Assembly: GCF_002177135.1 (NCBI RefSeq)
Contig: NZ_MWPH01000006.1
Location: forward strand, 5,955 to 69,954
Origin: Natronolimnobius baerhuensis
GTDB taxonomy: Archaea > Halobacteriota > Halobacteria > Halobacteriales > Natrialbaceae
Length of the DNA stretch: 64,000 nt
Direction: 5' to 3'
Shown here: positions 12,131 through 30,085 of the stretch, one piece after another
How positions within the stretch are numbered: position 1 is the first letter of the stretch
Layout of the letters: the number at the start of each line of letters is the position of its first letter
Position numbers and translations under genes: made by a program
Notes under the pieces: generated by a model
The model's input: the letters and a program-made list of their open reading frames with translations, nothing else
Database searches by the model: none
What the model was told of the DNA's origin: nothing

Positions 12131-14059
12131 ATGTATATCGCCGGGCTGATCGCCTACGCCGGGTCGGCACTCATCGGCGGTCTGCTGGCGGTCGCGCTGC
12201 TGACAAAATACGACCGCCGACAGCCCTCCTTTACCTTCGGTCTGTTTCTGCTCGTCATCGGCTTCTGGGCGGCGGCGTACGTCGGCTATCTGGTCGCCTC
12301 GAGCGAGCAGTGGCTCCTGTTTTTCATCCAGCTGTCGTATCTCTCAGTCGTCTCTGCGCCCATCGTCTGGCTCGTCTTCGCACTCCAGTACACCGATCAC
12401 GAGGCCTGGCTCTCGAGGCGACGGATCGCCCTGCTGTCGGTTGTTCCTGCGGGCGTCCTCACACTTGTCTGGACCGCACCATCTCACTCGCTGTTCTACG
12501 TCGACACCGTGGTCACGATAGTCGACGGCGTCGCCCTGCTCGACACGCCGCCCGCGGTCGGCCACCGAATTAATATCGTGTACGGCTACGGGCTGCTCCT
12601 GATCGGCACCGCCCTGATCGTCGCCGAAATCTTCACCACAAACCGGCTCTACCGTCGACAGTCGCTGGTGCTTTTGGCCTGTCTGAGCGCGCCGTGGTTC
12701 GCAAACGGCGTATTCCACCTCGGCGTACAACCGATTCCGACAGCGGATCTCACCCCGGTCGTCTTCGTTCTCGCCGGCATCCCACTGGCGGTGATCGTCC
12801 AGCGCGCCGAACTCACCGGCTTCGTCCCGGTCGCCCACGAACGCGTCTTTCACACCCTCGACGATCCCGTGTTCGTTCTCACCGACTCGAATCGGATCCT
12901 CGATGTCAACCGCGCTGCTCGCATCCTGGTCGACGCCGACGCCACCGTCACACCCATCGAAGGCAGCGATATTACCGACCTGCTCCCAGAAGCACTGCTC
13001 GACGACGATGACCTCCATCCCGATCTCGAGACTGCCATGGGCTGTGTGATTGACGTCGACGGCAGGCCCCGACAGTACATCGCCCGCGTTCGCGCCATCG
13101 ATCCGGGCCTGCAGGATCCACGCGGTTCTATCGTTTCCCTGACGGACATTACGGTTCAAAAACGCCAGCAAGCAAACCTCGAGGCCAAAAACGAACAGCT
13201 CGAGCGCCTCGCCAGCGTCGTCTCGCACGATCTCGCGACGCCGCTTGCAACCGGCGAGAGCCTGGTCCACCTCATCCGTGCCGATGTCGACGATGGAGAT
13301 CCGGAACTCGAGCAGTCGCTCGACGATCTCGAGGCCGTCCACGCCCGGTTGCGGGAGTTCGCCGAGGCGCTCCCCGAACTCGCACGGGAAAGCACCGACG
13401 TTGCGTCACCGGTCGAGTGCGATCTCGAGTCCGTCGCGCACGCGGCGTGGGACGTCGTAGACACTGGCGAGTTGACCCTCGTGATCGAGTCAACACGGAC
13501 AATAAGGGGAGATCCACGGCGGCTGCAGCAGGCGTTCGAAAACCTGTTCCAGAATACCGTAGCGCACGGCTCTACGAACCCTGCTTCACAGACCCAGCAG
13601 GATACCGTCGAACACGGTTCACCGGAATATCGCCCGGACGACTCCAAGATCGCCGTCGACGCTGACGTCGTCGAGCAGAACCAGAATCGGGAGGAATGCT
13701 GGGCGGGCAAAATTGCCCCTCCCAGCGAGCAGACCAGCGGGGCAGGGGAAGCGGACGACACTCGAGTCACGACGGTTCGAGTCGGAACAGTCGGGGCGGC
13801 CGTCGACGACAGGGATGTAGGGGCCGACTCCACCGCTCGAGAAATCGCCCGGAAACGCGGCTTCTACGTCGAGGACGACGGCCGCGGAATCCCGCCCGAA
13901 CGACGCGAGCACCTTCTCGAGTTCGGGGTTAGTACGGGCTCCGGTGCGGGCTACGGGCTTGCCATCGTTCGAACCATCGTCGAAGCACACGGCTGGTCCC
14001 TCGAGATCGGCGAGTCGGCCGAGGGTGGGGCGCGGTTCGAAATCCTCGAGGGCGACTGA
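12131..14059 (+). CDS. membrane sensor histidine kinase (6-7 TM, PAS, HisKA, HATPase_c with large insertion)
   Basis: N-terminal TM bundle. H-box 'SHDLATPL'. G-boxes 'GFYVEDDGRGIP' and 'GSGAGYGLAIV'. A ~90-aa acidic insertion lies between the N-box and G1. Likely start is ATG 12131 (MYIAGL). Confidence 0.8.
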   Translation: MYIAGLIAYAGSALIGGLLAVALLTKYDRRQPSFTFGLFLLVIGFWAAAYVGYLVASSEQWLLFFIQLSYLSVVSAPIVWLVFALQYTDHEAWLSRRRIALLSVVPAGVLTLVWTAPSHSLFYVDTVVTIVDGVALLDTPPAVGHRINIVYGYGLLLIGTALIVAEIFTTNRLYRRQSLVLLACLSAPWFANGVFHLGVQPIPTADLTPVVFVLAGIPLAVIVQRAELTGFVPVAHERVFHTLDDPVFVLTDSNRILDVNRAARILVDADATVTPIEGSDITDLLPEALLDDDDLHPDLETAMGCVIDVDGRPRQYIARVRAIDPGLQDPRGSIVSLTDITVQKRQQANLEAKNEQLERLASVVSHDLATPLATGESLVHLIRADVDDGDPELEQSLDDLEAVHARLREFAEALPELARESTDVASPVECDLESVAHAAWDVVDTGELTLVIESTRTIRGDPRRLQQAFENLFQNTVAHGSTNPASQTQQDTVEHGSPEYRPDDSKIAVDADVVEQNQNREECWAGKIAPPSEQTSGAGEADDTRVTTVRVGTVGAAVDDRDVGADSTAREIARKRGFYVEDDGRGIPPERREHLLEFGVSTGSGAGYGLAIVRTIVEAHGWSLEIGESAEGGARFEILEGD

Positions 14060-14244
14060 TCAGCCTGCGGCGCACCAGCGCATAGTGGTATGCGTTTTAG
14101 TATGTCCGGTGCCGACCTCTGAGCAGTGATATCGACAGCGCGACCGACAAATCGACTCGCCTCCCCACAAAAGGGGTGCCAGATCGGTCGCGACGGTCCC
14201 CCACCGACGGGAGACACCACAGCGGGCGGTGAGAAGACACCCCA

Positions 14245-15942
14245 ATGACAGCACTGAACACAGACACTAGATTGAACGACCGATACGCCCCGCCCGGGAC
14301 GGTCGACGCCCTGCTCGTCGACGACGACGAAACGTGGGCCAGAACCCAACGACGAGTCCTCGAGCGGCACTACGACGCCGTCTCAGTCTCGACGACCCAC
14401 ACGCTTCAGGACGCCCTCTACGCCCTCGAGACGGGGTCGCCAGATTGTCTCATCTGTGACTACCAACTCGGCGACGGCACCGGGCTCGAATTGCTAGAAG
14501 CGATCAGACGTGACCACCCGAAGCTGCCGTTCGTACTCGTCACCGGACAGGGGGACGAATCGGTCGCGAGCGCGGCAATCCGAGAGCACGTTACCGACTA
14601 CGTTAGAAAGGACGAACTGGCGAGTCAACCTGACCTCCTCGCCACGCGGGTCGCGTCCGTCGTGGAGGCCTATCGGACAGAGCAAGCGCTCGAGCGCGAA
14701 CGGCGGAGCAAAGAGGCGCTCCGTAGACTGGTGACCGCCAGCACAACCAGACAGGAACTCGGCCAAGGCGTTTGCCAACATTTCGTCGACGAGCACCGGT
14801 ACGCATTCGCGTGGATCGGCGTCCTCAATCGCAACGGCGCGGTCGTCCCGTTCGCCACGGCCGGCGACGACAGCTACCTCGAAGCAGTCCTCGAGCCGGG
14901 GACGAAACCTGACGACGGGGCCGAGCCAGCGGTGACGTCGCTGGCGTGTGGCGACACAGTCGTCGAATCACCGATAGACCCCGTCGGCGAAACACCAGTG
15001 TCAGTCGATGCTGAATCAAGAATCGAAGACGCAAAATTGGGCCCCGATTCCAGCGAAGAGATCGACGGGGACCAGAGCGGAGCGCAGTGGCGACACGCGG
15101 CGCTCGAGCACGGTATCGGCTCCGCGATGGCTGTCCCCATCGAGCACAACGGCGTCCATTTCGGCGTCCTCGCCGTCTACAACGACGAGGTCTCGTTCGA
15201 CGGCCAAGCGAGGGAGTTGCTCTCCGAGTACGCCGAAACGATTGGCTACGCCTTCCAGGCAACGGAGTGGCGACGGGCACTGTTCTCTTCGGCTATCACC
15301 CCCCTCGAGATCACCGTCGCGGACGAATTCTCAGCCCTCGTAGCGCTCTCCCGCAAACTGACGCGAACGGCAACAATCGAGGTCGAAACCGTCATTCCCA
15401 GAAATGACGATGAAGTGCTTTATTTGGCCTCGATCTCGGGTGCGTCCGCGAACTCGCTCGAGGACGCCGGCGAAGCCGTTGTATCCGTACGCTCGCTCGA
15501 GGTGTATGAGACCGGCGACCCTGTGCGATGCGGACTCATCGTGGAGACGCCGGTGCCGGAAACGGTCCTCGTTGAGGTGGGCAGTCGATTCCGACGAACC
15601 GTCGTTGCCGACGGTCAGATGCGTATCTTCGCGTCCGTTCAGGCTACAGAGGCGGTTCGCCCCGTAATCGATCGTCTTGAGGACGCGTTCGCCGATGCAT
15701 CGGTGACGGCGGTCTGGTCCGACCACTCACACCCAGAGGACACCGACGGGGGTGGACTGGAACGACTGACGGACCGGCAGCGTCAGGTGCTGGAACTGGC
15801 GCTCGATGCAGGATACTTCGAACGACCACGCCGGCACAACACCGGCGAACTCGCGGCGATGCTCGATATCTCTCGAGCGACCTTCACTCAGCATCTTCGT
15901 GCTGCACAGTCAAAGGTGTTCGAGGACCTGATATCTGAGTGA
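14245..15942 (+). CDS. response-regulator transcription factor (REC - GAF-like - HTH_10/Bat-type)
   Basis: REC: 'DALLVDDDE...D' (phospho-acceptor in 'ICDYQLGDGTG') and 'LVTG'. C-terminal 'LTDRQRQVLELALDAGYFERPRR...ELAAMLDISRATFTQHLRAAQSKV' is a canonical HTH_10. Confidence 0.8.
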   Translation: MTALNTDTRLNDRYAPPGTVDALLVDDDETWARTQRRVLERHYDAVSVSTTHTLQDALYALETGSPDCLICDYQLGDGTGLELLEAIRRDHPKLPFVLVTGQGDESVASAAIREHVTDYVRKDELASQPDLLATRVASVVEAYRTEQALERERRSKEALRRLVTASTTRQELGQGVCQHFVDEHRYAFAWIGVLNRNGAVVPFATAGDDSYLEAVLEPGTKPDDGAEPAVTSLACGDTVVESPIDPVGETPVSVDAESRIEDAKLGPDSSEEIDGDQSGAQWRHAALEHGIGSAMAVPIEHNGVHFGVLAVYNDEVSFDGQARELLSEYAETIGYAFQATEWRRALFSSAITPLEITVADEFSALVALSRKLTRTATIEVETVIPRNDDEVLYLASISGASANSLEDAGEAVVSVRSLEVYETGDPVRCGLIVETPVPETVLVEVGSRFRRTVVADGQMRIFASVQATEAVRPVIDRLEDAFADASVTAVWSDHSHPEDTDGGGLERLTDRQRQVLELALDAGYFERPRRHNTGELAAMLDISRATFTQHLRAAQSKVFEDLISE

Positions 15943-16168: not shown

Positions 16169-16306
16169 TCCAAAGTGACTCAACAGTCTGTTCATTTCGC
16201 GAACTGACTCGACAAGACAGGACTGTAAAACTCTCTGCTTCCGTTCTATAATTTAGTGTCTACTTACTAAATGTAAGATTGACTCATAAGTACAGATTAG
16301 TGTCAT

Positions 16307-16318
16307 CGAAAGTATAAA
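16307..16318 (+). promoter_or_regulatory. BRE/TATA promoter 'cgaaagtataaa' for kinase 1 (leaderless)
   Basis: Lies ~30 bp upstream of ATG 16347. The identical element sits upstream of paralog 3 (23270-23282). Confidence 0.55.
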
Positions 16319-16346
16319 CATCCCACCAGAGACAGTGTGCACGTAC

Positions 16347-19300
16347 ATGGAATTCGATGGAGGGAACCACAGTTGGGTTACAACCGATGGGAAATACTTT
16401 CTTTACAGTATACTGGCACTGATCGTCACCCCAATACTGCTTCTTCTCGGCGGAATTTGGTATGTCGTCCTTGCTATTCCAGGGGCGATCATTGACTGGC
16501 TGATACTAACTATACTCGGTGACGGACTGATTCACGGGTTTTATACTGTTCTTATGATATTCGTGATCATCGTCGGTTTCGTTGCGATCTTTGGAGCCAT
16601 CGCCACTATGTTTATTGGAACAAATCCAACGCCTGAACTACCAACAGGGGTTAGAAGTGGTCTCTGGTGGCTTGGACTGCCAGTGATTGGCGCAGCGGGT
16701 CTTCTGTACGGTTTACTCTCGGGTTTTGTGATTGACTCGACAACTCAATTTCTTGTCACTCTCCCTGTATTTATTTTTGTTACACTTCTTATTGCAACGC
16801 GAACCTTGAGCGTTGTTCGACAGTCGAAATCGTCGGAGGATGTAGCGTTGACCGCAACGACAGTGCTCGCGGGTTATGTAATCGTCGCTGGCGTCCTCGA
16901 CTCGATGGCGCTGGTTGCGGTCGTTCCAGCTGTATTGGATCCAATCAGCGGATGGCCGGGTCTAGGCGCTGTGTATCTTCCGGTGTTGTTGCTCCTCTTC
17001 GTTATCCTCTCCCCACTCGAGCGACTCGGGGCAGTAGACGTGAGCGGGAGCGGAACGCTATCGGCAATTGACTCAGGTTCAATCGAAGAGTTGCCGACAC
17101 ATCTGCCGCTGTTTTTTGATGCCGAGTCCGGTGACGGGTTATTCGCTGCTCTAGCCATTGCGTTTGTACTCGTTCCCGCTGCCAGTGCACTCATCGAATC
17201 ATCGTGGCATGGGTATCGAGTCGGGACCGATATCCGTACTCAAAAACACAAACTCGGATCACGAAAACACAGGTTCGAAAAGGCCCGCAACGAGTACCGT
17301 ACCGCTGTCGAGAACGCTGAAGCCGCACTCAAGGACGACCGCTACGACGAAGCCGAACAACTCGTTACCGATGTCGCCCAACCCAAGCTGAACGCGTGCC
17401 AACGACTGCACAAAAGCTACGAAATTTCGAAGTCCACTCCCGACAGCAATCGATTGGAGAATCTCAAGTATGAGCTAGAACGATACGAAGCCGATCAAAA
17501 ACTTGAGGACCTGATTCAGCAACAGGAAGAGATCGTCGACGAATATTACCAGCACCGCGACGCGGCCAACCACGAGAAGGCGGTTGAAGCCCTGCGACAA
17601 GCAAAGTCGATCGCACGTGACTGTACAAACACAGCTTCAGGATACAATCTTGGATATGACCTCGAAGACTTGCTGTCCATGTCGACAGACGAGATTGACG
17701 CCGCGATGGCCGACCTCGAGGCAGTACAATCGAAGGCCACGCTCGAGAACATTGTAACAAAATACGTGACGACTCTCGCAGCCTTCGACGATGCGGTTTG
17801 GGACGGTAACCTCGAACGCTGCGAGACGCTATTCGAGGCGCTGCGTCAGAAACGCTCGCGGATCGAGCAACTCGAGCAAGAACTTGGAACCAACGCCAAG
17901 GCCCTCTCAGATGCTGATCGTGATCTCGATGGTCGGATCCACCACGTCACTCAGCAGGCGATTAGATCGAAATTTAACGAGGATATTGAGACCGGTGACT
18001 GCCACGGGGCGTTTGCCTGGCCCGAGGCGAAGGCACGTTACCTGCTCGCTTCGGGAACACAGGCTGCCGAAAACGGCAACTATCGAGACGCAATCGTACG
18101 AGCAGAGACTGTCTCAGATTATCTCTTACAGCACCTCGATGCCGGATCTCCAGACGATCGGAATCGAGATGCGTTGAGCAACCTACTCGGAACCGCCCGC
18201 GATCAGAAAGGGAAGTGGGAACGGCAGTTGATCGTACAACAGATCAACGACGCGGTCGACAGGGAACCGGACGAGTACGAAGAAGCGAGCAAAATCCTCA
18301 CGCGTGCGCTATCGCGGATCGATCAGACGAACGCGTTTGACGAGGAGGAGCGAGCGATCATCGAGCAGGATACCCGCAAAGCGTACGCCACCGTTCACTC
18401 GGATGGGGCATCTGCGCTCGTCGATAGCGGTAACGAACGACTCGAAGCTGGAGACGAATCGTCTGCTGTCACCTTTTACGAGAGGGCGATGACGGTTCTC
18501 GAGGATCTCAGCGATGCAGTCGCGGATTGGAACGACGTCACTAATGAACCCATTAATGAACAGTACGACGCAGTCGAACAGAAATACGTCGAGGCACAGA
18601 CGACACTTCTTGAGGAACGTATTCGTCTGGGAATCGATCAGTTCGACGCCGGTGAGTACGACGCCGCTCTCGAAACGTTCCGAGACGTGACAAACGAGAC
18701 CGAGACTGTCCGCGAGCGTGTTGAGAACGAATACGATCGTCTGCTGTATCTCCAAGACCTCACCGAAGCGAACGCGAAGACGACCCAACGAACCTCACTG
18801 GGTATTGGGACCGGATCGAAATCCCTCCAAGAACCCGAAGATGATGCGGCTGGCACAACCCAGCAAGATCATATCGATTCGAGTGCCAGTGCCACCTCAC
18901 AGGCTGCTGGTGCACCCGGAAACGACATATTCGACGCGGTTGAGGCATCGCTTCCAGATGAGATAGACTACATGCAACTCGAGAAGGACGCGGTGCTTGG
19001 GTCAGGTGGAAATGCGACCGTTCATAAAGCCAGGCTGGATGGCGACGAAACCAAGCATATCGCTCTCAAAGAGCCTCAGGTTCCTGAGGGAACAGTCGAC
19101 AAGGCACTGTTCGACCGATTCAGAGACGAAGCAGAAAACTGGGAAGAAGTCGACGATCATCCCCACGTCGTCAGCATCCTTGATCATGGTATGCACACGC
19201 TTCCCTGGATTGCGATGGAATATCTCGACGGCGGCCATCTCGGTGACCGTGTCGGGAAACTTGGAACTGAGCAGGCGTTATGGACCGCACTGGGTATCAC

Positions 19301-19802
19301 CAGAGCGATCAAACATGCTCACCGGCCTGGCATCACCCACCTCGACATCAAGCCTGAGAACATCCTCTTCAAATCGGTTGATGGGTACTGGGATATTCCC
19401 AAAGTCGCCGATTGGGGGCTAGCGAACCACCTTCTCGATCGTCCGGACGGCGTCGAAGGACTGTCGCCACAGTACGCTGCTCCGGAACAGTTTGATCCCG
19501 ATATCTTTGGCGACACCGACCTCGAGACGGACATCTACCAGCTCGGGGTCGTTTTCTACGAACTGTTTACGGGAACCCTGCCGTACGAGGGTGACCGCTA
19601 CAACGTGTTGCAGAACGATCCGGACCGAAAACCAACGCCTCCGAGTGAAATCGCAGACGTGCCACCAGAACTCGACGACGTGCTTCTGAAAGCGCTCGCT
19701 CCGGAGAAAGCAGACAGGTACGAGAATGTCGCCTTCCTCGAACAGGAATTAGAAGTGCTCTTCGAGTCGCTGGTCGAGGACATGAATCCTCCACAACGCT
19801 AG
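16347..19802 (+). CDS. membrane-anchored Hanks-type Ser/Thr protein kinase, paralog 1 (N-terminal multipass TM + ~650-aa helical/TPR-like region + C-terminal kinase)
   Basis: Kinase motifs: 'LGSGGNATV' (Gly loop), 'IALKEP' (Lys), 'HRPGITHLDIKPENILF' (catalytic loop), 'DWGLA' (DFG variant), 'SPQYAAPEQ' (APE). The six-frame track starts at GTG 16335. ATG 16347 fits the TATA spacing. Confidence 0.85.
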   Translation: MEFDGGNHSWVTTDGKYFLYSILALIVTPILLLLGGIWYVVLAIPGAIIDWLILTILGDGLIHGFYTVLMIFVIIVGFVAIFGAIATMFIGTNPTPELPTGVRSGLWWLGLPVIGAAGLLYGLLSGFVIDSTTQFLVTLPVFIFVTLLIATRTLSVVRQSKSSEDVALTATTVLAGYVIVAGVLDSMALVAVVPAVLDPISGWPGLGAVYLPVLLLLFVILSPLERLGAVDVSGSGTLSAIDSGSIEELPTHLPLFFDAESGDGLFAALAIAFVLVPAASALIESSWHGYRVGTDIRTQKHKLGSRKHRFEKARNEYRTAVENAEAALKDDRYDEAEQLVTDVAQPKLNACQRLHKSYEISKSTPDSNRLENLKYELERYEADQKLEDLIQQQEEIVDEYYQHRDAANHEKAVEALRQAKSIARDCTNTASGYNLGYDLEDLLSMSTDEIDAAMADLEAVQSKATLENIVTKYVTTLAAFDDAVWDGNLERCETLFEALRQKRSRIEQLEQELGTNAKALSDADRDLDGRIHHVTQQAIRSKFNEDIETGDCHGAFAWPEAKARYLLASGTQAAENGNYRDAIVRAETVSDYLLQHLDAGSPDDRNRDALSNLLGTARDQKGKWERQLIVQQINDAVDREPDEYEEASKILTRALSRIDQTNAFDEEERAIIEQDTRKAYATVHSDGASALVDSGNERLEAGDESSAVTFYERAMTVLEDLSDAVADWNDVTNEPINEQYDAVEQKYVEAQTTLLEERIRLGIDQFDAGEYDAALETFRDVTNETETVRERVENEYDRLLYLQDLTEANAKTTQRTSLGIGTGSKSLQEPEDDAAGTTQQDHIDSSASATSQAAGAPGNDIFDAVEASLPDEIDYMQLEKDAVLGSGGNATVHKARLDGDETKHIALKEPQVPEGTVDKALFDRFRDEAENWEEVDDHPHVVSILDHGMHTLPWIAMEYLDGGHLGDRVGKLGTEQALWTALGITRAIKHAHRPGITHLDIKPENILFKSVDGYWDIPKVADWGLANHLLDRPDGVEGLSPQYAAPEQFDPDIFGDTDLETDIYQLGVVFYELFTGTLPYEGDRYNVLQNDPDRKPTPPSEIADVPPELDDVLLKALAPEKADRYENVAFLEQELEVLFESLVEDMNPPQR

Positions 19803-19940
19803 GCTGCTCGCCGAGGCCCGGCCGAGCCGGGTACGTGGTCAATCTTGTTTCCAGTTCCTCCAAATCTGTTACTGAGAGCGATCTTTCTTCAAGGAAAGAA
19901 TCCCGCCGTTCATGGCGAGGAGGAAGTCACCAAAGCAGGA

Positions 19941-22900
19941 CTACTCCTGCTGATACTGGTCATCGTATAGTTCCTGCAGCGCGTCCCGCAGGTAGAGAAC
20001 CGACTCATACCGGTCGACCTTCTCTTTTGCCATGGCTGTTAACAGAATCTCGTCGAGTTCCGGCGGGACATCTGCGAGTTCGCTCGGCGGCTGCGGCGCT
20101 TCTGTGAGCACCTTGTTCATCACACGAGCCGGTTGTCCCTCGAACGGCGGCCGGCCCGTGAACAATTCATAGTAGACTGAGCCGAGTTGGCACACATCCG
20201 TAATATCGTCAGCCGACCCGTAGTTATCGTCGAACTGCTCGGGAGCTGCATAGTGTGGAGACAATCCTTCGATACTCTTGGAGTGCTCGAGCAGGTGTTT
20301 CGAGAGTCCCCAATCGGCTACTTTCGGGACATCCCAACCGTCTGTGACCGATCGAAAGAGGATGTTTTCGGGTTTTAAATCGAGGTGGGCGACGCCCCGT
20401 CGGTGAGCGTGTCGCACTGCCTCTGCCGTGACGATCGCCGTCCACAACGCGTGATCAAACGGCATTTCTCCGGCCCGATCGCCAACATGGCCGCCGTCCA
20501 TGTGCTCCATGGCGATCCACGGCAACGGTTGTGACCCCCAGTCAATTACGCCAACGATGTGATCGTGGTCGTCGAGTTTCGCCCATGTCTCGGCCTCCTG
20601 TGTGAATTCCTCAACGACTTGGGTACCGATCGTTCCCTGAATACGCGGCTCTTTGAGTGCAACCGTGTGAGTAGTACCGTCGACTGTGACAGTCGCGCAA
20701 TAAACGTCGGCATTACCCCCTCTGCCAATAGACTCATCCCGATCTAGTCGGTCGTATGCGAACTCAAGGTCTGGTGCGCCAGGGATCTCGGTCGCTATCG
20801 TCGAACCGACTGCCGAGACAATCGTTTCCGTCGCCTGTATCCGAGCACCGCTGGACTGGTGGCGGGCGTCCGGCTGCTCGAGCGCAACCGTTGCGACCTG
20901 ATTCGGCTCTCTCATCGTGGGATTTTCAGTTCCGATTCCCAGTGACGCACGCTGTGCTTTGCGAGCGTTGTCGCTTGCCACGCTCTGGAGGTGAGCGAGT
21001 TGATCCGCGTCGTCTGGATCTGCGATTTCGCCCTGAATCTCAACAGTCTCCTCGCCGACAGCTGTGAACGTCTCATATGCGGATTCGTACGATCCGTCCT
21101 CGAACGCCGCGATGCCATCACCGATCCGTTCGTTGATCCGAGTGACTTCTACTTCGGCTTTCCTTGTTTCAACCATCGAAGCGACTGCAGTCAACTCATC
21201 CGTCTCGATGTCGTCCCACGGTTTAGCTCTCGTAGCGGCCGTGGCAGCGACCTCAGCTGCCTCGTCGAATGCATCTGTCGCACGAGCGTATGCCTCGGAC
21301 TCAAGGTGCCGCTCGCCTTCCTCGAGCAGGTACGTTGTACCCTGAATACTGACCGAGAGGTACGCCTCGCGTGCCTCTTGTTTCAGGAAGTCCAGCTGAT
21401 GATCGTCGACTAATCGAACTTCCGAGAACTGTCCCAACACGGAGCCTAACTGTTCCAATGCGTCGTCGTATCCAGCTGGCTCCGCATTGAGAGCCGAGTT
21501 GATACGAGTAACCAGCATTTTCTGTTCCCAATCTGATCCGTTTTCGACAAGTTGCTTGCGGAACCGCTGGTACGGTTCTGTTTCGTAGTCGTGTTCGTTC
21601 GCATGTTCGACAGCCTGGTCCAGTGATGCGTTCGCGCTCCGAACATGCTCGACGGCGTTCCGGTAGTTTCCATGGTCAGCTTCGTCCGTCGCTCGCTGGA
21701 GTGAGTTCTCAACCAGCGTCGAGAGCAGATCGAACTCGAGTTCTCGAGCGGTATCCCATTGATCTTCTACCTCTTTGACGTGTGTCCTCAGATTGGGCTG
21801 TTTAGCCCAGTCGACTGCGGCGTTGAGATTCTTGAGTGCCTCCCGTATAGATGGCAGTGCAGCGGAGGGTGACTCCTTGGATGCCGTGTATTTGCCGTCT
21901 GCTAACGCCTTCACTCCGATTTGTCGTAGCGATGTAAACTTCACTTCCGAAAGTGATTTCCTCAGGTCGAATATCTCCGATTGGTCTATCGTAGAAACGA
22001 GGTGTACTGATTCCTCAACATCTTCTAATTCGGAGAGACCCACTTCGGCGTGTTCCAATGCTAGATGATAGTCGCCGGTACGTTCGGCGTCCTTTCCCTC
22101 CTGATAGCAGTTGTCTGCTACCTTGTATCCGCCGATTTTCGCCTCCAGAATTTGCTCTTGTATATATTCTTTTGCTTCGCCAACTTCATCTTGATTCTCC
22201 TGCGGTGCAAAGCTATATTGGGTTCCATCGTCGAGTTCGAATGATAGCTTATCGAAAAATATCGGTTTTTTCGAGGACGGATTTTGTATTTCCTCGTAGT
22301 CAAAGTACTGGATTTCGTCTCCCTTTTTCCTGCCAATGAGATAGATAAGACGTTCGTTCGTGACGATAAGATGCCGACTTCCTTCCTCATCGTCGCTAAA
22401 TGAGACATGATGCGGCGTTACCTCGCGCCCGCCAGGCTTCGTAATTCGAAATCCTTTTGTCTGATTCCTGAAGAAAAATTCGGGACGCTCCGCAGGTTCA
22501 AAAATCTTGATCGGGGGTTTATCGTACAGATGTTGAGTGAGGAACCCACCAGTATGTGTCAGTTGTTTCGATTGTATTGTCCCGCTCGCAGCCGCTGCTA
22601 GTTCTTCTGGTGTTGAGGGCGTTGGCTGTGGCTTGTCCTGAACGTCTTTCGAGAACGATTCAACCGATGATTCCATTGACGAATCTGTATCGTCATCGAC
22701 TCCATCTCGAGCGTACAGATAATATAGTGGATAGAAACCAATCGTTAGAAAGGTCAGCGTCAGTGTGATGATCCAATGTCGCTCAGTGACTTCGTTTGAG
22801 TGTTGGCTGAGTTGCTGCTTGTCTGTAGCGATATAGTATCCCGCAACAGGTAATCCGAAAAGAAACATGACACCCAGTAGAGGCACTAGTCCAGGAACAA

Positions 22901-22979
22901 TCACAGCACTGATCCACGACGCGAAGTACAGCGCGACCGTCCATTTGACATAGCGGTATGCACTGTCCGTTTCAGTCAT
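19941..22979 (-). CDS. membrane-anchored Hanks-type Ser/Thr protein kinase, paralog 2
   Basis: N-terminal TM helices and long helical middle. C-terminal 'IGRGGNADVYCATV', 'VALKEP', 'HRRGVAHLDLKPENILF', 'DWGLSKHLL', 'SPHYAAPEQF'. Confidence 0.85.
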   Translation of the reverse strand: MTETDSAYRYVKWTVALYFASWISAVIVPGLVPLLGVMFLFGLPVAGYYIATDKQQLSQHSNEVTERHWIITLTLTFLTIGFYPLYYLYARDGVDDDTDSSMESSVESFSKDVQDKPQPTPSTPEELAAAASGTIQSKQLTHTGGFLTQHLYDKPPIKIFEPAERPEFFFRNQTKGFRITKPGGREVTPHHVSFSDDEEGSRHLIVTNERLIYLIGRKKGDEIQYFDYEEIQNPSSKKPIFFDKLSFELDDGTQYSFAPQENQDEVGEAKEYIQEQILEAKIGGYKVADNCYQEGKDAERTGDYHLALEHAEVGLSELEDVEESVHLVSTIDQSEIFDLRKSLSEVKFTSLRQIGVKALADGKYTASKESPSAALPSIREALKNLNAAVDWAKQPNLRTHVKEVEDQWDTARELEFDLLSTLVENSLQRATDEADHGNYRNAVEHVRSANASLDQAVEHANEHDYETEPYQRFRKQLVENGSDWEQKMLVTRINSALNAEPAGYDDALEQLGSVLGQFSEVRLVDDHQLDFLKQEAREAYLSVSIQGTTYLLEEGERHLESEAYARATDAFDEAAEVAATAATRAKPWDDIETDELTAVASMVETRKAEVEVTRINERIGDGIAAFEDGSYESAYETFTAVGEETVEIQGEIADPDDADQLAHLQSVASDNARKAQRASLGIGTENPTMREPNQVATVALEQPDARHQSSGARIQATETIVSAVGSTIATEIPGAPDLEFAYDRLDRDESIGRGGNADVYCATVTVDGTTHTVALKEPRIQGTIGTQVVEEFTQEAETWAKLDDHDHIVGVIDWGSQPLPWIAMEHMDGGHVGDRAGEMPFDHALWTAIVTAEAVRHAHRRGVAHLDLKPENILFRSVTDGWDVPKVADWGLSKHLLEHSKSIEGLSPHYAAPEQFDDNYGSADDITDVCQLGSVYYELFTGRPPFEGQPARVMNKVLTEAPQPPSELADVPPELDEILLTAMAKEKVDRYESVLYLRDALQELYDDQYQQE

Positions 22980-23269
22980 AGTGATATCACCTATTCAGAT
23001 TTGCTACATATAATACTTTACTTTGTGATAAGTTATTAGATGGCTACATCGAGAGAACAGCAAATCGACTGCGAGACTGACTTCCCATAGGTGTGTTCCG
23101 TGCGGGGACTGTTACGACCTGTCCACCAGGTATTGCCGGAAAATGATTCTCTGCAAACCGATGGAGCATCTATCATTTATACTTATATTAATGGAAGCTC
23201 ATATTAAAGAACGGAAATAAGCCCCCCAGAGCCCTGTAATGCTGACTTTGCCGATTATCATAATTTCAT

Positions 23270-23282
23270 CGAAAGTATAAAT
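23270..23282 (+). promoter_or_regulatory. BRE/TATA promoter 'cgaaagtataaat' for kinase 3 (leaderless)
   Basis: 28 bp upstream of ATG 23310. Context 'tcatcgaaagtataaa' is conserved with 16301-16318. Confidence 0.55.
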
Positions 23283-23309
23283 AGATCCGTACTTCCAATT
23301 ATCCTGTAT

Positions 23310-26300
23310 ATGGGGATCGACGAACGCGATCAACACTGGTTCACTGCCGATATCACGCACTTTGTGTATAGTATCTTTTCGCCAATTACAGTTCCATTTG
23401 TCCTCCTAGCGGCGATGATTTGGCTACTCATTGTTGGCATTCCAGGTTTTATGCTCGAGTGGATTATCAAGCTTATTTTCACGGAGAACGGACTCGTTCA
23501 CTCACTCTATATGATCGTTTTCCTGTTTGTGATAGTCGTCGTTTTTGTCGGCTATTTCGCATTCGCTCTCATCGAATATCTCACCGCAGAGCCGATGCCG
23601 GACCAAATGCCAACGAGCACGGCCGGCTATTGCTGGTGGATTGGTCTTCCTGTTCTCGCTGCCGTCGCCGTGCTTGCCGGCCTCGCCGCCGGTGTCGAGA
23701 TTGAGTCGACAAGACAGTTCCTCGTCCTAGTCCCGCTATTCGTGTTCGGTTCAGTGCTCCTGATGACGCGAACGCTAAGTGTCGTTCGACGGTCGAAATC
23801 CTCGGCCGACGTCACCGTCACCGTCACTACCGTCGTCATCGCCTACATACTCGTCGCTGGCGTCCTCGAGGCGGTCGGCCTGTTCGTGGTTGCCCCGTTC
23901 CTCTTCGAACCAATAAGCGAGTGGCCCGGCATGGCATCGGTGTATGTTCCGCTGTTGCTTGTCCTCCTCGTCATAATCGAACCGCTCGACGCACTCGGAC
24001 TGCTGGATTCATCCTCGACTGACGGCTCCACTGATCCCGGTGAAATGGCGGCGAATGTCCCAGTTTTGTTCGACGCTGAAACGGGAGAAGGCCTGTTTAT
24101 GTCGCTAGCGCTCACGTTTGTCGTCCTTCCCGCTCTCGTCGCAGTCGTCGAATCATCGTGGCATGGATATCAAATCACATCCGAGATACGTGCCCGGAAA
24201 AACAGGCTCAAGGCGCGGAAACGTAAATTCGAAGAGACTTCTAGGGAGTTCAACTCCGCCATCGAAGATGCCGAAGCTGCACTCGAGGACGACCGTTACG
24301 ACGAAGTCGAACGGCTGGTCATCGACGTTGCACAGGCCAAGCTGGATCGGTGCCAGCGACTGCACAAGAACTACGATATTCCGGAGTCCGTTCCTGCCAG
24401 TGCTCGAATCGAGAATTTGAAGATTAAACTGAAGCGACACGAGGCCAAACAAGAACTCGAAGACCTGATCCAACGACAAGAGGAACTCATCGAGGAGTAC
24501 CGCCAGAACCGCGATGCAGCCAACTACGAGAAGGCGAAAGGATCGCTGCGTCGAGCAAAGTCGGTCGCAAGCGACTGTACAAACACAGCGCGGGAACACG
24601 GCCTCAAGTACTCGCTACCAATGTCGAGCAATGACATTGACGCCGCGATAGCTACCCTCGAGGCGACAGAGACCGAAGCCGAACTCGAAGACATCGTCGC
24701 CGAATACGAGTCCCATCTGTCGACGTTCGACGACGCGATTTGGAGCGGTGACCTGGATCGCTGCGATACGCTGTTTGAGACGCTACGTCAGAAACGCTCG
24801 CAGATCGAGCAACTCGAGCACAAACTAGGGACCAATGCCGAGGCGCTCTCGAGTGCTGATCGGGATCTCGCTGACCGGATTCACCACGCAGCCCAGCAGA
24901 CGATTAGGACGAAATTCGATGTGGGTGTTGGGACCGGTGAGTGCGACGGCGCGTTTGCCTGGCCCGAGGCAAGAGCACGCTACCTGCTCGCTTCGGGGAG
25001 ACAAGCTGCTGAAAATGGCGAGTATCGAGACGCAATCTCGCGAGCAGAGACCGTCGCCACCGACCTCTTACAGCACCTCGACGACGGGTCCCCCAGCGAA
25101 CGGAATCGAGACTCACTGGGAGACCTGATAGGGACCGCCCGAGATCACAAGGGAGAGTGGGAACGACAGTTGATCGTCCGACAGATCAACGACGCGGTCG
25201 ACAGAGAACCGGACGAGTACGAGGAGGCGAGCAAAATCCTCACAAGTGCACTGTCGCGGATCGATCAGACGAATGCGTTTAGCGAGGAAGAGCGAGCGAT
25301 CATCGAGCAGGATACACGCAAAGCGTATGTTACCGTTCGCTCGGACGGGGCATCTGCGCTCGTCGATAACGGTAACGAGCGGCTCGAAGTTGGCGACGAA
25401 TCGTCTGCAGCCACCCATTATGAGGACGCGATGACAACTCTTGGGGACCTCGGCGATACAGTCGCAGAGTGGAACGACGTTAACAATGAACCCATTGATG
25501 AACAGTACAACGCAGTCGAACAGAAATACGTTGAAACACAGACGACACTGCTTGAGGAACGTATCCGGCTGGGAATCGACCAGTTCGACGCCGACGAGTA
25601 TGACGCTGCTCTCGAGACGTTCCGAAACGTGACGAACGAGACCGAGACTGTCCGCGAGCGTGTCGAGACCGAATATGATCGTCTATTGTACCTCCAAGAC
25701 CTCACCGAAGCGAACGCGAAGACGACCCAGCGCACCTCGCTGGGTATTGGGACCGGATCGAAATCCCTACAAGAACCCGAACAGGATGCGGCTGGCACAA
25801 CCCACCGGGAGCATATGGACTCGAGCATCAACTCCACCTCACAGGCCGCCGGCGCACCCGGAAACGACATATTTGACTCGATTGAGGCATCGCTTCCCGA
25901 CGAGATAGACTACATGCAACTCGAGAAAGAGACGGTGCTTGGGTCGGGTGGAAACGCGACCGTCCACAAAGCCAGGCTGGATAGCGATGAAACCCAGTAT
26001 ATCGCCCTCAAAGAGCCCCAGGTTCCTGAAGGAACAGTCGACAAGGCACTGTTCGACCGATTCAGAGACGAAGCGGAAAACTGGAAGCAAGTCGACGATC
26101 ACCCTCATATCGTCAGCGTCCTCGATCACGGTATGCACACGCTGCCCTGGATCGCAATGGAGTATCTCGACGGCGGTCATCTCGGTGACCGCGTCGGACA
26201 ACTCGAGACTGAGCACGCGTTGTGGACCGCACTAGCAGTCACCAGAGCGATCAAACATGCTCATCGACCTGGCATTACCCACCTCGACATCAAACCTGAA

Positions 26301-26741
26301 AACATCCTCTTCAAATCGGTCGATGGATACTGGGACATTCCCAAAGTGGCCGACTGGGGGCTAGCGAATCATTTGCTCGACCGTCCGGATGCCGTCGAAG
26401 GACTGTCACCGCAGTACGCTGCTCCGGAACAGTTTGATCCCGATATCTTTGGCGACACCGATCTCGAGACGGATATCTATCAACTCGGAGTCGTCTTCTA
26501 CGAACTGTTTACCGGAACGCTGCCGTACGAGGGTGACCGGTACAAGGTGTTGCAGAACGAACCGGAGAGAACGCCAACGCCTCCGAGTGAACTCGCAGAC
26601 GTACCACCAGAACTCGACGACGTGCTTCTGAAAGCACTGGCCCCGGAGAAAGCGGACAGGTACGAGAACGTCGCCTTCCTCGAGCAGGAATTAGAAGTGC
26701 TCTTTGAATCGCTGGTCAACGACGCGAGTCCCCAGCGTTGA
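23310..26741 (+). CDS. membrane-anchored Hanks-type Ser/Thr protein kinase, paralog 3 (recent duplicate of paralog 1)
   Basis: Same architecture as paralog 1. The C-terminal ~800 aa are ~90% identical to 16347-19802. The kinase domain is near-identical. Confidence 0.85.
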   Translation: MGIDERDQHWFTADITHFVYSIFSPITVPFVLLAAMIWLLIVGIPGFMLEWIIKLIFTENGLVHSLYMIVFLFVIVVVFVGYFAFALIEYLTAEPMPDQMPTSTAGYCWWIGLPVLAAVAVLAGLAAGVEIESTRQFLVLVPLFVFGSVLLMTRTLSVVRRSKSSADVTVTVTTVVIAYILVAGVLEAVGLFVVAPFLFEPISEWPGMASVYVPLLLVLLVIIEPLDALGLLDSSSTDGSTDPGEMAANVPVLFDAETGEGLFMSLALTFVVLPALVAVVESSWHGYQITSEIRARKNRLKARKRKFEETSREFNSAIEDAEAALEDDRYDEVERLVIDVAQAKLDRCQRLHKNYDIPESVPASARIENLKIKLKRHEAKQELEDLIQRQEELIEEYRQNRDAANYEKAKGSLRRAKSVASDCTNTAREHGLKYSLPMSSNDIDAAIATLEATETEAELEDIVAEYESHLSTFDDAIWSGDLDRCDTLFETLRQKRSQIEQLEHKLGTNAEALSSADRDLADRIHHAAQQTIRTKFDVGVGTGECDGAFAWPEARARYLLASGRQAAENGEYRDAISRAETVATDLLQHLDDGSPSERNRDSLGDLIGTARDHKGEWERQLIVRQINDAVDREPDEYEEASKILTSALSRIDQTNAFSEEERAIIEQDTRKAYVTVRSDGASALVDNGNERLEVGDESSAATHYEDAMTTLGDLGDTVAEWNDVNNEPIDEQYNAVEQKYVETQTTLLEERIRLGIDQFDADEYDAALETFRNVTNETETVRERVETEYDRLLYLQDLTEANAKTTQRTSLGIGTGSKSLQEPEQDAAGTTHREHMDSSINSTSQAAGAPGNDIFDSIEASLPDEIDYMQLEKETVLGSGGNATVHKARLDSDETQYIALKEPQVPEGTVDKALFDRFRDEAENWKQVDDHPHIVSVLDHGMHTLPWIAMEYLDGGHLGDRVGQLETEHALWTALAVTRAIKHAHRPGITHLDIKPENILFKSVDGYWDIPKVADWGLANHLLDRPDAVEGLSPQYAAPEQFDPDIFGDTDLETDIYQLGVVFYELFTGTLPYEGDRYKVLQNEPERTPTPPSELADVPPELDDVLLKALAPEKADRYENVAFLEQELEVLFESLVNDASPQR

Positions 26742-26833: not shown

Positions 26834-28372
26834 CTACGGTTCAATCGTTCCGAACAAACCAACCGCTTTGCGTCGCCGATAGAGATATAATAGGAACGTC
26901 AATGCATAGGCGATAAGGCCGATGTAATAGAGGTAGCGCCGCGGCGACCACTCGATCCGCTCACTCTGTTGAAACAGTACCATCTCCTTGTTCCAAGCGT
27001 AGAAGAATCCGATGATAGAACCAAGTATGATCACTGCACCGCCGTCAGTGCCGCTTGCGCCGCCAAGGATGAAGGCCGGGAACGACCCGTATAGTATATG
27101 ATGCGTATGAAGCGTACCGAAATCGGTCTCGATTACTGCTGACGAAACGCGTTGTGCTGGCGTGGGTTCGGTTGGTGATTGTTGCGAGGGCGATTCGGAC
27201 GTAGAACGCGAGTTCGGTTGTTCAACACCGGTGTCAGCTCCCGTATTGGGACGGGTTGTATCACGCCTGTCTGTTTCTTTGTCATTATTCGAAACCGATG
27301 GATCACCAGGATTCGTTATCGTCGTTCCACTGTTCGTGCCGGCCTGATCGGTTGATGAAACTGTACCGCGCTGAGTTGAAGTGGACGCTGATGTCGAGTC
27401 GCTGGTGTTCTGTGAAGGTGTACTTCGAGGAGCTGCCATCGATTCGGCCGGGTCGTTGCCGAGTGCCAACTCGAGCAAACGGTTGAGTTCGCGTTTGAAG
27501 TCAAGAATTGACTCGTACCGATCAGATTTGTCCTTTGTGAGTGCGCGCATGAGCGCGCTGTCGGTTCCCTCGGGGAGACCATCAACTCGTTCACTGGGTG
27601 GTATCGGTTCCGACTCGAGGACGTCATGCATGACGGTCGCGGCAGATCCAGTAAACGGTGGTTCGCCGACGAGCGCGGCGTACACAACCGCACCAGTTGC
27701 ATAGATATCTGTGTAGTCGTCGGTATGCCCGTAGGTTTCGTCATCGAACTGTTCGGGGGCGGCATAGTGTGGCGACAGTCCTTCGATGCTCTGAGAGTGT
27801 TCAAGCAGCATCTTCGCAAGTCCCCAATCAGCGACTTTTGGAACATCCCACGAACCCGGCTCCGTCTCTGCGAACAAGACGTTTTCCGGTTTGAGATCGA
27901 GATGGGCAATACCTCGCCTGTGAGCGTGACGGACCGCACGAGCGATGCAGACGCCGATCCACAGCGCTTCTGCGGGCTCGAGATCGCCGAGTCGCGCATC
28001 GAGACTGCCGCCATCCATGTATTCCAGTGCAATCCATGGGAGCGGCTGACTCTCATAACCGAGCACGCTGACGATGTGATCGTGGTCGTCGAGTTTCTCC
28101 CACGTCTCCGCCTCTGCAGTGAACTGTGAAAGGGATTCGACGTCTAGTGTCCCCTGCATTCGTGGCTGTTTCAGCGCACAGATGTCAGGCCCCTCACCCT
28201 TGAATTGAACCTTGGTGACATCGGCGTTCCCCCCTGATCCAATCGCCTCGAGTTCTTCGAAATCTGTGAAGTCAGCGTCGATCCGGACAGGATCGGTATC
28301 AGCAACGTCCGGACGTAAATCCTTGTGTACCCCCGAAGACATATCTCTGTTCTCGAATACTGAGAGAACCAT
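26834..28372 (-). CDS. Hanks-type Ser/Thr protein kinase with inverted architecture (N-terminal kinase, S/T/P-rich linker, C-terminal TM helices)
   Basis: 'IGSGGNADVTKV', 'ALKQP', 'HRRGIAHLDLKPENVLF', 'DWGLAKMLL', 'SPHYAAPEQF'. Low-complexity STP/Q linker. Two or three C-terminal hydrophobic helices. Confidence 0.85.
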   Translation of the reverse strand: MVLSVFENRDMSSGVHKDLRPDVADTDPVRIDADFTDFEELEAIGSGGNADVTKVQFKGEGPDICALKQPRMQGTLDVESLSQFTAEAETWEKLDDHDHIVSVLGYESQPLPWIALEYMDGGSLDARLGDLEPAEALWIGVCIARAVRHAHRRGIAHLDLKPENVLFAETEPGSWDVPKVADWGLAKMLLEHSQSIEGLSPHYAAPEQFDDETYGHTDDYTDIYATGAVVYAALVGEPPFTGSAATVMHDVLESEPIPPSERVDGLPEGTDSALMRALTKDKSDRYESILDFKRELNRLLELALGNDPAESMAAPRSTPSQNTSDSTSASTSTQRGTVSSTDQAGTNSGTTITNPGDPSVSNNDKETDRRDTTRPNTGADTGVEQPNSRSTSESPSQQSPTEPTPAQRVSSAVIETDFGTLHTHHILYGSFPAFILGGASGTDGGAVIILGSIIGFFYAWNKEMVLFQQSERIEWSPRRYLYYIGLIAYALTFLLYLYRRRKAVGLFGTIEP

Positions 28373-28540: not shown

Positions 28541-29257
28541 TCAGAGTGAACTAAGGAGGACACTCACATTGTCACTTCCGCCGTTTTCGTTCGCTCGTTC
28601 AACGAGCAGGTCAGCGCCCTTTGCGAGTGTCGGCGCTTCGTGGATGAGTTCGTGGATTGTTTCGTCGGCGACTTCCTCGGTCAACCCATCCGAACAGAGC
28701 AATAGCGTGTCTGCTCCAGAAACTTCGTAAAAATCTGGCTCAACCGTCTCATCTGTTCCAAGTGCTTGTGAGATTACGTTTCGCTGTGGATGCTCCGCAG
28801 CTTCTTCCGACGTGAGTTTCCCTTGATCGACCAACTCTTGGACTAACGACTGATCAGTGGTTACCTGCTCGATTGAACTCTCGGTGAGGGTGTATGCCCG
28901 ACTGTCGCCAACGTTCGCGAGGAGTACCTCACCGCTCCGAACGAGTGCAACGACCACTGTTGTTCCCATTCGTGAACGCTCGTTACACTGGTCGTGGATC
29001 GCTCGATTGGCGTCCACAATTGCTGATTCCAACAGATCCTTCCACTCGGTCCGTGGTGGTATCGAATCGCCACCAAGCGTCTCTTCGAGCGTGTCGATTG
29101 CCAGTTGACTCGCGACGTCGCCAGCGGCGTGGCCGCCCATCCCGTCAGCGACCGCGAGGAGTTTCGTATTATCTGTCAGCTGCGTTCCAAACAGGGTATC
29201 CTCGTTGTGTTCGCGTTGACGGCCGACGTCAGTTCGGGTTACAAAAGTCTCGTTCAT
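28541..29257 (-). CDS. PP2C-family (PPM) Ser/Thr protein phosphatase
   Basis: 'GRQREHNEDTLF', 'LLAVADGMGGHAAGDVASQLAI', 'GDSRAY', 'LLLCSDGLT' and the C-terminal 'GGSDNVSVL' are canonical PPM motifs. Confidence 0.85.
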   Translation of the reverse strand: MNETFVTRTDVGRQREHNEDTLFGTQLTDNTKLLAVADGMGGHAAGDVASQLAIDTLEETLGGDSIPPRTEWKDLLESAIVDANRAIHDQCNERSRMGTTVVVALVRSGEVLLANVGDSRAYTLTESSIEQVTTDQSLVQELVDQGKLTSEEAAEHPQRNVISQALGTDETVEPDFYEVSGADTLLLCSDGLTEEVADETIHELIHEAPTLAKGADLLVERANENGGSDNVSVLLSSL

Positions 29258-29269: not shown

Positions 29270-30085
29270 TTAATTAGAGTTTGCTGGGTCACAGTGCGGA
29301 CAGGCATCCTCATAGGCCAGATCGTGAACCTGACAGAACTGTTTCGTGGCGGTTTCGGACGGTGCTGTATCGCCACCCGGTTCCGATGGCTGGTTCGAAC
29401 CGAGGTCGTACCCGCAGTTAGGACAGTACAATGCAGTGGCGCTGATCTCGCTCCCACATTTGATGCAAAACTGTGTATCGCTCGTGGTCTCTTCGGACCC
29501 CGGTTGCGGTTCGGGAGTAGACGTCTGATTGTTGACCGAGATCGTATCCGACGGGTTCGACTCGCTTCCGATGCTCGAGCGATTGAAGACATTATCGTCG
29601 CCGACCTCGGCCGGTTCTTCGCCACCGATGTCCGTACGGTTAAAGACGTTGTCGTCACCGACGGTAGTACTGTTATCCTCACCCACCACGATTTTCCCGT
29701 CCCCGGTGTTGACAAATTTCGCATCTCGCTCGGTCGTCAACTGTAACGTAGTCTGGTAGCCAATCGAGATCGTAGCGTCGCTCGAGACCGTCTCAATACG
29801 TCCGTTGGCGACCTCTCGCTCCATACCTTTCGAAGTGACGGTGATGCCGTTAGAGTTCCCGTTGTTGTGAATCTCGATCCGTTCCTCGCGTGGCTTGAAC
29901 GCGACTGGCGCGGTATCTCCCTTTTTACGAGAGACAGTAATGTCAGCGACACCCAATGGCACGACTTTACCGTCTACTTCGGCAACGACTTGTTCGCCTC
30001 GTTCAGGGTCGCGATACACCTCTGTCCATGATTCGACAGAAATTTTCCCCGTATCCGACGAATCGATTGTTACGTACCCCCTCAT
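29270..30085 (-). CDS. zinc-ribbon protein with degenerate FHA-like N-terminal domain
   Basis: C-terminal 'FCIKCGSEISATALYCPNCG' and 'FCQVHD...CPHCD' are CxxC pairs. The N-terminal beta-rich region ('ITVSRKKGD...IEIHNNGNSNGITVTS') loosely matches the FHA 'SR.HA...S.NGT.VNG' pattern. Internal repeat 'VGDDNVFNR(T/S)(D/S)IG' x2. Confidence 0.55.
   Translation of the reverse strand: MRGYVTIDSSDTGKISVESWTEVYRDPERGEQVVAEVDGKVVPLGVADITVSRKKGDTAPVAFKPREERIEIHNNGNSNGITVTSKGMEREVANGRIETVSSDATISIGYQTTLQLTTERDAKFVNTGDGKIVVGEDNSTTVGDDNVFNRTDIGGEEPAEVGDDNVFNRSSIGSESNPSDTISVNNQTSTPEPQPGSEETTSDTQFCIKCGSEISATALYCPNCGYDLGSNQPSEPGGDTAPSETATKQFCQVHDLAYEDACPHCDPANSN

Follow-up and report, generated by a model that had tools for sequence, protein, structure and literature searches.

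Two neighbouring genes of Natronolimnobius baerhuensis, here called A and B, encode putative membrane sensor Ser/Thr kinases that are very similar in their C-terminal parts and strongly diverged in their N-terminal membrane domains. How could two genes of one locus become so alike at one end and so different at the other? Both genes lie within the window, that is, the whole 64-kb stretch of DNA analysed here, which belongs to a 111,945-bp contig. An earlier note on this DNA had presented the pair as a recent segmental duplication of a 3.5-kb block including its promoter, and had attributed the uneven divergence either to gene conversion of the 3' part or to diversifying selection on the membrane sensor. 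Our analysis indicates that an ancient duplication of A and B, followed by an old non-reciprocal homogenisation of the 3' part through ectopic gene conversion, is the probable origin of this pattern. That the pair is a recombinational mosaic, whether by this homogenisation or by import of diverged DNA, the two taken together, is considered highly probable.

The two same-strand open reading frames (ORFs) reported at 16335/16347-19802 and 23310-26741 were present in the window. Gene A (16347..19802, + strand) encodes a protein of 1151 amino acids (aa) and gene B (23310..26741, + strand) one of 1143 aa, and the two translations could be aligned from end to end with few gaps. Both have the same architecture, in which about 7-8 predicted transmembrane (TM) helices, located within the first 285-290 residues, are followed by a helical region and a Hanks-type kinase domain. 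In A, these three parts correspond to aa 1-288, 289-868 and 869-1140, respectively. The helical region (about 570 aa) of A and B gave no sequence match in Pfam or PDB. The peptides quoted in the earlier note were found in the translations of A and B.

The gradient of identity from the N- to the C-terminus was confirmed. Over the N-terminal 290 aa, A and B are 46% identical, in agreement with the value of about 45% previously given for the membrane domain, and identity reaches 89% over the C-terminal 500 aa and 92% over the C-terminal 300 aa. The figure of about 90% formerly assigned to the C-terminal 800 aa is true only of the last 400-500 aa, 81.5% being the value for the 800 aa, and the last 110 nucleotides (nt), said to be near-identical, proved to be 85% identical, with only 70% in the last 27-30 nt. 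At the nucleotide level, the whole genes share 76% identity, and blastn aligned 17316-19775 with 24270-26717 at 84%. Three strata were distinguished along the pair. The old stratum, formed by the TM domain and the juxtamembrane linker (A 16347..17315, B 23310-24269, + strand), shows 46% aa and 58% nt identity; the intermediate one, which is the first helical module (A 17316..18026, B 24270-24968, + strand), about 62% and 72%; and the young one, comprising the second helical module and the kinase (A 18027..19775, B 24969-26717, + strand), 85-93% and 87%.

Silent divergence was studied at 4-fold degenerate sites in codons whose first two bases match. The proportion of these sites that differ was 0.53 in the old stratum (codons 1-290), 0.40 in the intermediate one (291-562) and 0.27 in the young one (563-end), the helical and kinase parts of the latter giving 0.28 and 0.26. 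The maximum chi-square test placed a breakpoint near codon 350 (permutation p<0.0005; the observed value was reached in 0/2000 permutations). Fisher tests on the same kind of sites separated the TM part from the 3' part (p=3e-5) and, leaving out the part of A with low G+C content at third codon positions (GC3), codons 201-562 from codons 563-end (p=0.008). According to the Bayesian information criterion, silent sites supported a two-level model with a break at codons 350-410 (A nt 17390-17570), and amino acid mismatches a three-level model with breaks near codons 325 and 625. In addition, the ratio of transitions to transversions fell from 174:60 (2.9) in the 3' stratum to 153:72 (2.1) in the intermediate one and 155:202 (0.77) in the TM part, and this low ratio denotes saturation of the 5' part. 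The synonymous (dS) and nonsynonymous (dN) distances obtained by the Nei-Gojobori method (NG86) were 1.68 and 0.44 for codons 1-290, 0.98 and 0.26 for codons 291-520, 0.51 and 0.10 for codons 521-860, and 0.49 and 0.04 for codons 861-end.

To remove the constraint specific to each segment, the A-B distance was divided by the mean distance of both proteins to an outgroup, P0057, a full-length homologue of 1175 aa with the same architecture that was recovered from a hypersaline metagenome by exhaustive profile search. The relative ages so obtained were 0.66 for the TM segment (bootstrap interval 0.53-0.82), 0.30 for aa 291-560 (0.22-0.39), 0.13 for aa 561-868 (0.09-0.18) and 0.11 for the kinase (0.06-0.16), and the intervals of the first three do not overlap. 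Segment 561-868 is 35-36% identical to P0057, which is close to the 33-36% of the TM domain, and yet A and B are 85% identical in it. Since this segment is as poorly conserved as the TM domain with respect to the outgroup, differential constraint cannot produce the gradient. The gene is thus made up of strata of differing coalescence age. Within the 3' stratum, where both relative age and silent divergence are equal, constraint alone explains the difference between 85% identity in the helical part and 93% in the kinase. In the phylogenetic trees, the TM domains of A and B were sisters with 100% bootstrap and long tips, and their kinase domains had a long shared stem and tiny tips. These kinase domains are 53-56% identical to the other kinases of the cluster, which are 64-73% identical among themselves.

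The limits of the homology were then considered. The 16-nt sequence TCATCGAAAGTATAAA, a core promoter element resembling a transcription factor B recognition element followed by a TATA box (BRE/TATA), is found exactly twice in the window, upstream of A (16303..16318, + strand) and, in identical form, upstream of B (23266..23281, + strand). No further site was detected in the window when up to three mismatches were allowed, and the looser BRE/TATA-type pattern CGAAANTWTAWA recovered the same two sites only. Both copies stop 28 nt upstream of the ATG codons (16347 and 23310), so that the common promoter context reported previously was confirmed as an identical 16-mer with an identical 28-nt spacing. 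Outside the 16-mer, the sequences upstream of the two genes cannot be aligned, not even in the 28-nt spacers. At the other end, nt identity holds at about 92% as far as 19775/26717, drops through the final eight codons and is gone after the stop codon; homology ends within about 25 nt of that codon, the 3' flanks are unalignable, and the silent sites of the coding sequence beside them are still 73% identical. As the flanks cannot be aligned and homology ends near the stop codon, what A and B have in common is a unit made up of the core promoter and the coding sequence, and not a larger segment. That the 16-mer is identical next to a saturated 5' coding sequence and spacers that cannot be aligned is most readily attributed to purifying selection on the BRE/TATA element. 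The two promoters presumably use the same basal factors and A and B may be co-regulated. The usual distance between TATA box and transcription start in archaea suggests that the A mRNA is leaderless or near-leaderless.

These observations can be accommodated in a single model. An ancient duplication would have produced a second copy of an entire gene for a membrane sensor Ser/Thr kinase, core promoter included, and later one or more non-reciprocal homologous exchanges would have overwritten the 3' part of one copy with that of the other. One exchange may have spanned the gene from the neighbourhood of the stop codon back to about codon 325-410, a little beyond the last TM helix, and a younger one probably affected only the second helical module and the kinase, from about codon 560-625 to the end. 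The direction and the number of these events are as we infer them. The last exchange would itself be old (silent divergence of about 0.3), with purifying selection acting on both copies since then. On the 3' side it would have stopped where homology runs out, at the stop codon, in keeping with the sudden disappearance of similarity at that point; this loss, so close to silent sites still largely identical, is expected if exchange was limited to the gene body. The 5' limit could have been set by the mismatches already accumulated, or by selection acting against loss of the differences between the sensors. The outcome would be two diverged membrane sensors with nearly the same stalk and catalytic output, under the same BRE/TATA element. 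The cluster to which A and B belong, with four kinases, would feed the module of PP2C, FHA, SPFH, Vps4-like and ESCRT-III-like proteins ("Halo_FHA"; ESCRT, endosomal sorting complex required for transport) located beside it, and the shared kinase cassette may act on the same FHA/ESCRT substrates. Highly efficient gene conversion is known in polyploid haloarchaea (PMC11276520). Of the two explanations offered in the earlier note, gene conversion of the 3' part is therefore the better supported one, by both the silent sites and the outgroup-normalised ages.

The divergence values refute a recent segmental duplication of the 3.5-kb block with its promoter, which we regard as extremely unlikely. 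It would account for the common orientation and architecture of A and B and for their identical promoter element and spacing, but even the youngest stratum differs at 13% of its nucleotides and 27% of its 4-fold sites, NG86 dS is about 0.5 or more everywhere, and the flanks, the 28-nt spacers among them, are not homologous apart from the 16-nt element. Neither did a GENECONV-style search for recent tracts reveal any unusually long identical fragment, the longest identical run in the 3' stratum being 50 nt for a permutation expectation of 43 (P=0.19). Improbable too, if to a lesser degree, is a single duplication of the age of the 3' part without any recombination, after which the sensor and the proximal stalk would have evolved much faster, under diversifying selection or relaxed constraint, and the kinase would have remained constrained. 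The first step in amino acid identity, at about codon 325, does coincide with the boundary between the TM and cytoplasmic domains, and the TM domain evolves fast throughout the family, A and B being only 26-33% identical to its more distant members in this domain. However, such a duplication predicts a uniform dS, and the silent-site tests speak against it, since the 4-fold sites of conserved codons are twice as diverged 5' of codon ~350. The shift of GC3 in A could inflate silent differences. Saturation of the transition to transversion ratio is confined to the TM part, and segment 561-868, no more constrained than the TM domain when compared with the outgroup, is 85% identical in A and B. 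The sensor domains of kinases in systems of the Halo_FHA type vary among genomes, as this explanation would have it; nevertheless, diversifying selection on the sensor obtained no positive support. Sliding-window dN/dS (NG86) between the paralogs was 0.02-0.47 throughout and 0.16-0.47 in codons 1-330, so that no 5' window exceeded 1, a test of low power in the TM part as dS is saturated there. Tajima relative-rate tests against P0057 were not significant for any segment, so that A and B show no asymmetry, and both genes look functional and constrained from their sequences.

A mosaic could also have arisen by import, one copy, or only the 5' sensor part of A, having been acquired from a diverged strain or species through horizontal transfer and homologous replacement. 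A and B would then be partly xenologs, and the 5' part would be old because it is foreign and not through homogenisation of the 3' part within the genome. We consider this rather unlikely. The GC3 of A is 0.35-0.47 in codons 41-200 (window 16467-16946), against 0.59-0.75 in the counterpart of B and about 0.6 elsewhere in the two genes, and this stretch may be either foreign DNA or the product of local mutational bias, but the silent-site step remains without it. Although the locus is on a plasmid-like replicon and homologous replacement is frequent between haloarchaeal species (PMC3542582), no donor-like sequence was found among 5.8 billion proteins or 1.84 billion representatives. Homology is lacking between the flanks of the two genes, yet the identical promoter element and spacing argue for common descent of the 5' ends, as does the sister position of the TM domains. 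Rearrangement of the locus elsewhere, as in contig L082, which keeps remnants of the PP2C and of an A-type TM domain, would agree with import as well; three strata, however, need at least two import events. Homogenisation of the 3' part after an ancient duplication is for these reasons preferred, and several points weigh against it. The low GC3 of A inflates the silent differences in that stretch and may mean imported DNA, the silent-site support for the third stratum is weaker (p=0.03), the relative ages are based on one full-length outgroup, which is distant (about 33-38% identity), and, given that no identical tract is significantly long, there is no sign of ongoing conversion. Furthermore, no orthologs of A or B were found in any searched collection. 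In word-indexed protein searches, neither full-length B nor its 860 non-kinase aa retrieved anything other than A and B, and none of the 232 stretches matched by a contig scan with non-kinase motifs was confirmed by tblastn. Among the matches listed in the scan with kinase motifs there were distant kinases only, such as one from a Halovenus metagenome-assembled genome (54% identity, confined to the kinase domain) and a protein of 1127 aa from Halobacteriales QS_8_69_26 (33%).

Similarity restricted to the 3' part was also seen between kinases of the same cluster in two other contigs that carry this system. In L086 (9774-13729), from an unrelated metagenomic haloarchaeon, the adjacent kinases k804 and k503 (804 and 503 aa) are 86% identical in aa and 88% in nt over the kinase cassette; their similarity is limited to this cassette, of 744 nt, and their N-terminal halves are unrelated. 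In L085, a metagenomic contig, two sensor kinases with PQQ-propeller and antiporter-like domains are 62% identical in their C-terminal 362 aa and are sisters in the kinase tree. Such cases support, and do not prove, a general exchange of cassettes within these clusters. Tentatively, a 3' cassette of stalk plus kinase might be repeatedly homogenised or re-copied among neighbours while the 5' sensors diverge or are swapped. If so, A/B, k804/k503 and the PQQ/antiporter pair would be three independent instances of a recurrent, directional concerted evolution in which several sensors are wired to one output, with FHA, PP2C and ESCRT substrates. In itself, the A/B pair illustrates how a lineage would multiply the sensor inputs to one module, the sensor drifting and the catalytic cassette being kept uniform by recombination.

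The annotation of A and B deserves some comments. The ORF of A begins at the GTG 16335 proposed earlier as its start, but ATG 16347 is most likely the true one, as deduced from the alignment with B, from the outgroup homologues and from the TATA-ATG spacing shared with B. Homology to B and to the distant relatives starts at Met 16347, and W10, D14 and P95 are invariant in nine TM-domain homologues. The public models are shorter, that of A (P0002, 979 aa) beginning at internal residue 173 and that of B (P0001, 1044 aa) at internal Met100, and the sensor domains are consequently cut short by the deposited models (window 16347-16863 in A and 23310-23606 in B). The long forms are the real genes, as their upstream parts are homologous in A, B and seven distant relatives and the TATA element stands at -28. 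A run of six T is located within A at 17113-17118, and another public gene call, P0056 (268 aa), is frameshifted exactly there; a frameshifted version of gene C, the paralog placed between A and B, is also present in the public collection (P0054). Both frameshifts are probably homopolymer errors in other assemblies of N. baerhuensis. In the helical region, a weak internal repeat was observed (24756-24938 against 25589-25757, E=0.008), and both helical modules finish with a similar "...Q(T/R)...G(I/V)GTG" motif. The repeat and the shared end motif suggest that the stalk may have arisen through duplication of a module.

As previously indicated, a third paralog is situated between A and B on the opposite strand. 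This gene C (19941..22979, - strand) encodes 1012 aa with 2 TM helices, a bPH_3 domain, a helical module homologous to that of A and B from about aa 560 on, and a kinase domain 53% identical to theirs. A TATA-like sequence, TATTATAT, at 23008-23015 (- strand) likewise ends 28 nt before the ATG of C, and the 330-bp intergenic region between B and C therefore holds two divergent, probably leaderless promoters. A fourth kinase paralog, gene D (26834..28372, - strand), which was absent from the earlier description, follows B and encodes 512 aa, in which a kinase at the N-terminus is joined by a low-complexity linker to a TM anchor at the C-terminus. D is the conserved "core" kinase of the system, showing 51% identity to its ortholog in Natronosalvus rutilus along the whole protein and 72% within the kinase domain. 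The four proteins are predicted to be Hanks-type Ser/Thr protein kinases. They match Pkinase (PF00069) with 100 (A), 104.8 (B), 95.4 (C) and 110.6 (D) bits, the cut-off being 31.7, and the Hanks motifs, namely the Gly-rich loop (LGSGGNATV), the VAIK Lys (IALKEP), the alphaC Glu (DEAENW), the HxD..N catalytic loop (HLDIKPEN), DxG (ADWG) and APE (AAPE), could be aligned in all of them with minor variants; HLD (non-RD) and DWG instead of DFG are non-canonical. A recent tandem duplication of an A plus C unit giving B plus D was rejected: C and D are differently built, their kinase domains share only 54-55% identity, and the kinase tree joins C to P0059 and D to a Natronosalvus ortholog. Interpretation of the cluster as a defence system was also discarded, the PADLOC matches to PD-T4-6, mad6 and IetA spanning only generic kinase or AAA domains.

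The genes beyond D are on its strand and upstream of it. They comprise a PP2C Ser/Thr phosphatase of the Stp1/IreP type (28541..29257, - strand; 257.5 bits, cut-off 230), a protein with an FHA-fold domain and C-terminal zinc ribbons (29270..30085, - strand), a helical repeat protein (30318-31112, - strand), a double-zinc-ribbon and SPFH protein (31112-32890, - strand), an AAA ATPase similar to Vps4/CdvC/PAN (33105-34307, - strand) and an ESCRT-III-like coiled-coil protein with an acidic tail (34403-35083, - strand). The ATPase matched CdvC with 154.8 bits (cut-off 650) and the PAN and CDC48 models below their cut-offs, and the coiled-coil protein gave no match to Pfam Snf7. The position of the FHA/zinc-ribbon gene beside these kinases is conserved in other haloarchaea, and a homologue of this gene, 45% identical, lies directly downstream of the outgroup kinase P0057. 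The four Pkinase genes and the PP2C are contiguous with the FHA/SPFH/AAA module, and synteny is kept in L084 and L085. In L085 the whole gene set is syntenic, with 42-62% identity per protein; in L084 (N. rutilus) synteny is partial, the D ortholog, the FHA/zinc-ribbon gene and the PP2C being adjacent. The closest relative of the module was seen in L082 (4249-4452; also in L083), whose SPFH protein is 77% identical. All that is left there is a stretch of 21 aa from the N-terminus of the PP2C and one of 36 aa, encoded on the opposite strand, from an A-type TM domain; they lie next to a gene for a CetZ/tubulin-kinase fusion, and the kinase end of the locus is accordingly rearranged in that contig. 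Directly upstream of A, at 12011-15942, a HisKA_7TM/PAS histidine kinase and a receiver-GAF-BAT-HTH_10 regulator were identified, so that the cluster of Ser/Thr kinases has a two-component pair as its immediate neighbour.

The window also contains an orc1/cdc6 gene with repeat arrays on both sides, a gene for ParA and a transposase of the IS240 type, and its G+C content varies from 41 to 62%, all of which points to a plasmid-like replicon. At least 8 copies of a motif of about 22-35 nt, ACACC[C/T]CTATCGATTTGTT, are present in both orientations in a low-GC stretch at 41335-44271, surrounding the orc1/cdc6 gene (42436-43770, - strand), and a second repeat family, TTACACTCGAC...GGGGTG, occurs at 41569-42049. 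The two families look like origin-recognition-box arrays of a replication origin. In addition, internal tandem repeats were noticed in two large secreted or surface proteins, a CarboxypepD_reg protein (82% identity over 335 nt) and a GLUG/Big_1 protein (79% over 116 nt), at 48237-48994 and 9688-9878, respectively.

Comparison with known systems places this locus within the Halo_FHA clade of archaeal ESCRT systems, which, as described by Makarova et al. (2024, mBio; PMC10936438), consists of Vps4, ESCRT-III, an FHA protein and associated kinases and phosphatases. The representative given there is the neighbourhood of N. baerhuensis itself, for which three arCOG03682 ("SPS1") kinases (WP_087715642-44) and the Vps4 protein (WP_087715647) are named. 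The organism and, by gene content, the locus are the same as in the window, and the genes are therefore already catalogued. The FHA protein of the window has an FHA domain and zinc ribbons, while arCOG13166 is described there as combining FHA with a CdvA-like domain. The available text of that work discusses neither the paralog pair nor its mosaic divergence nor the N-terminal TM domain. With its four kinases, two of them partly homogenised, its truncated gene models and its FHA fold, the present description may be useful for genetics or phosphoproteomics of Halo_FHA.

The network regulating the Sulfolobus archaellum, with ArnA (FHA plus zinc ribbon), the kinases ArnC and ArnD and a PP2A, resembles this locus at the fold level only. 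It belongs to another phylum, its phosphatase is a PP2A and not a PP2C, its vWA partner was not found here, and it is linked to archaellum genes instead of ESCRT-like ones. As for the bacterial-type PknB/PrkC kinases with their Stp1/PrpC phosphatases, the likeness resides in membrane-anchored Hanks kinases adjacent to a PP2C of the Stp1/IreP family. The best NCBIfam match of the kinases described here is PknB_PASTA_kin, for the kinase domain only and with about 160 bits against an equivalog cut-off of 450. They differ from PknB/PrkC in having no PASTA domains, in the reverse order of an N-terminal 7-8-TM sensor and a C-terminal kinase, and in the HLD and DWG variants of their catalytic motifs.

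Finally, the A/B pair was compared with cases of ectopic gene conversion and partial concerted evolution. It departs from the typical ones in that the tract is old, with 13% nt divergence and without a long identical fragment of the GENECONV type. It resembles them in the heterogeneous silent divergence along the pair, in the block of high identity that ends where homology ends and in the predicted functionality of both copies. The pair is thus a fairly ordinary instance of a well-known process, in a known gene family and at a published locus.

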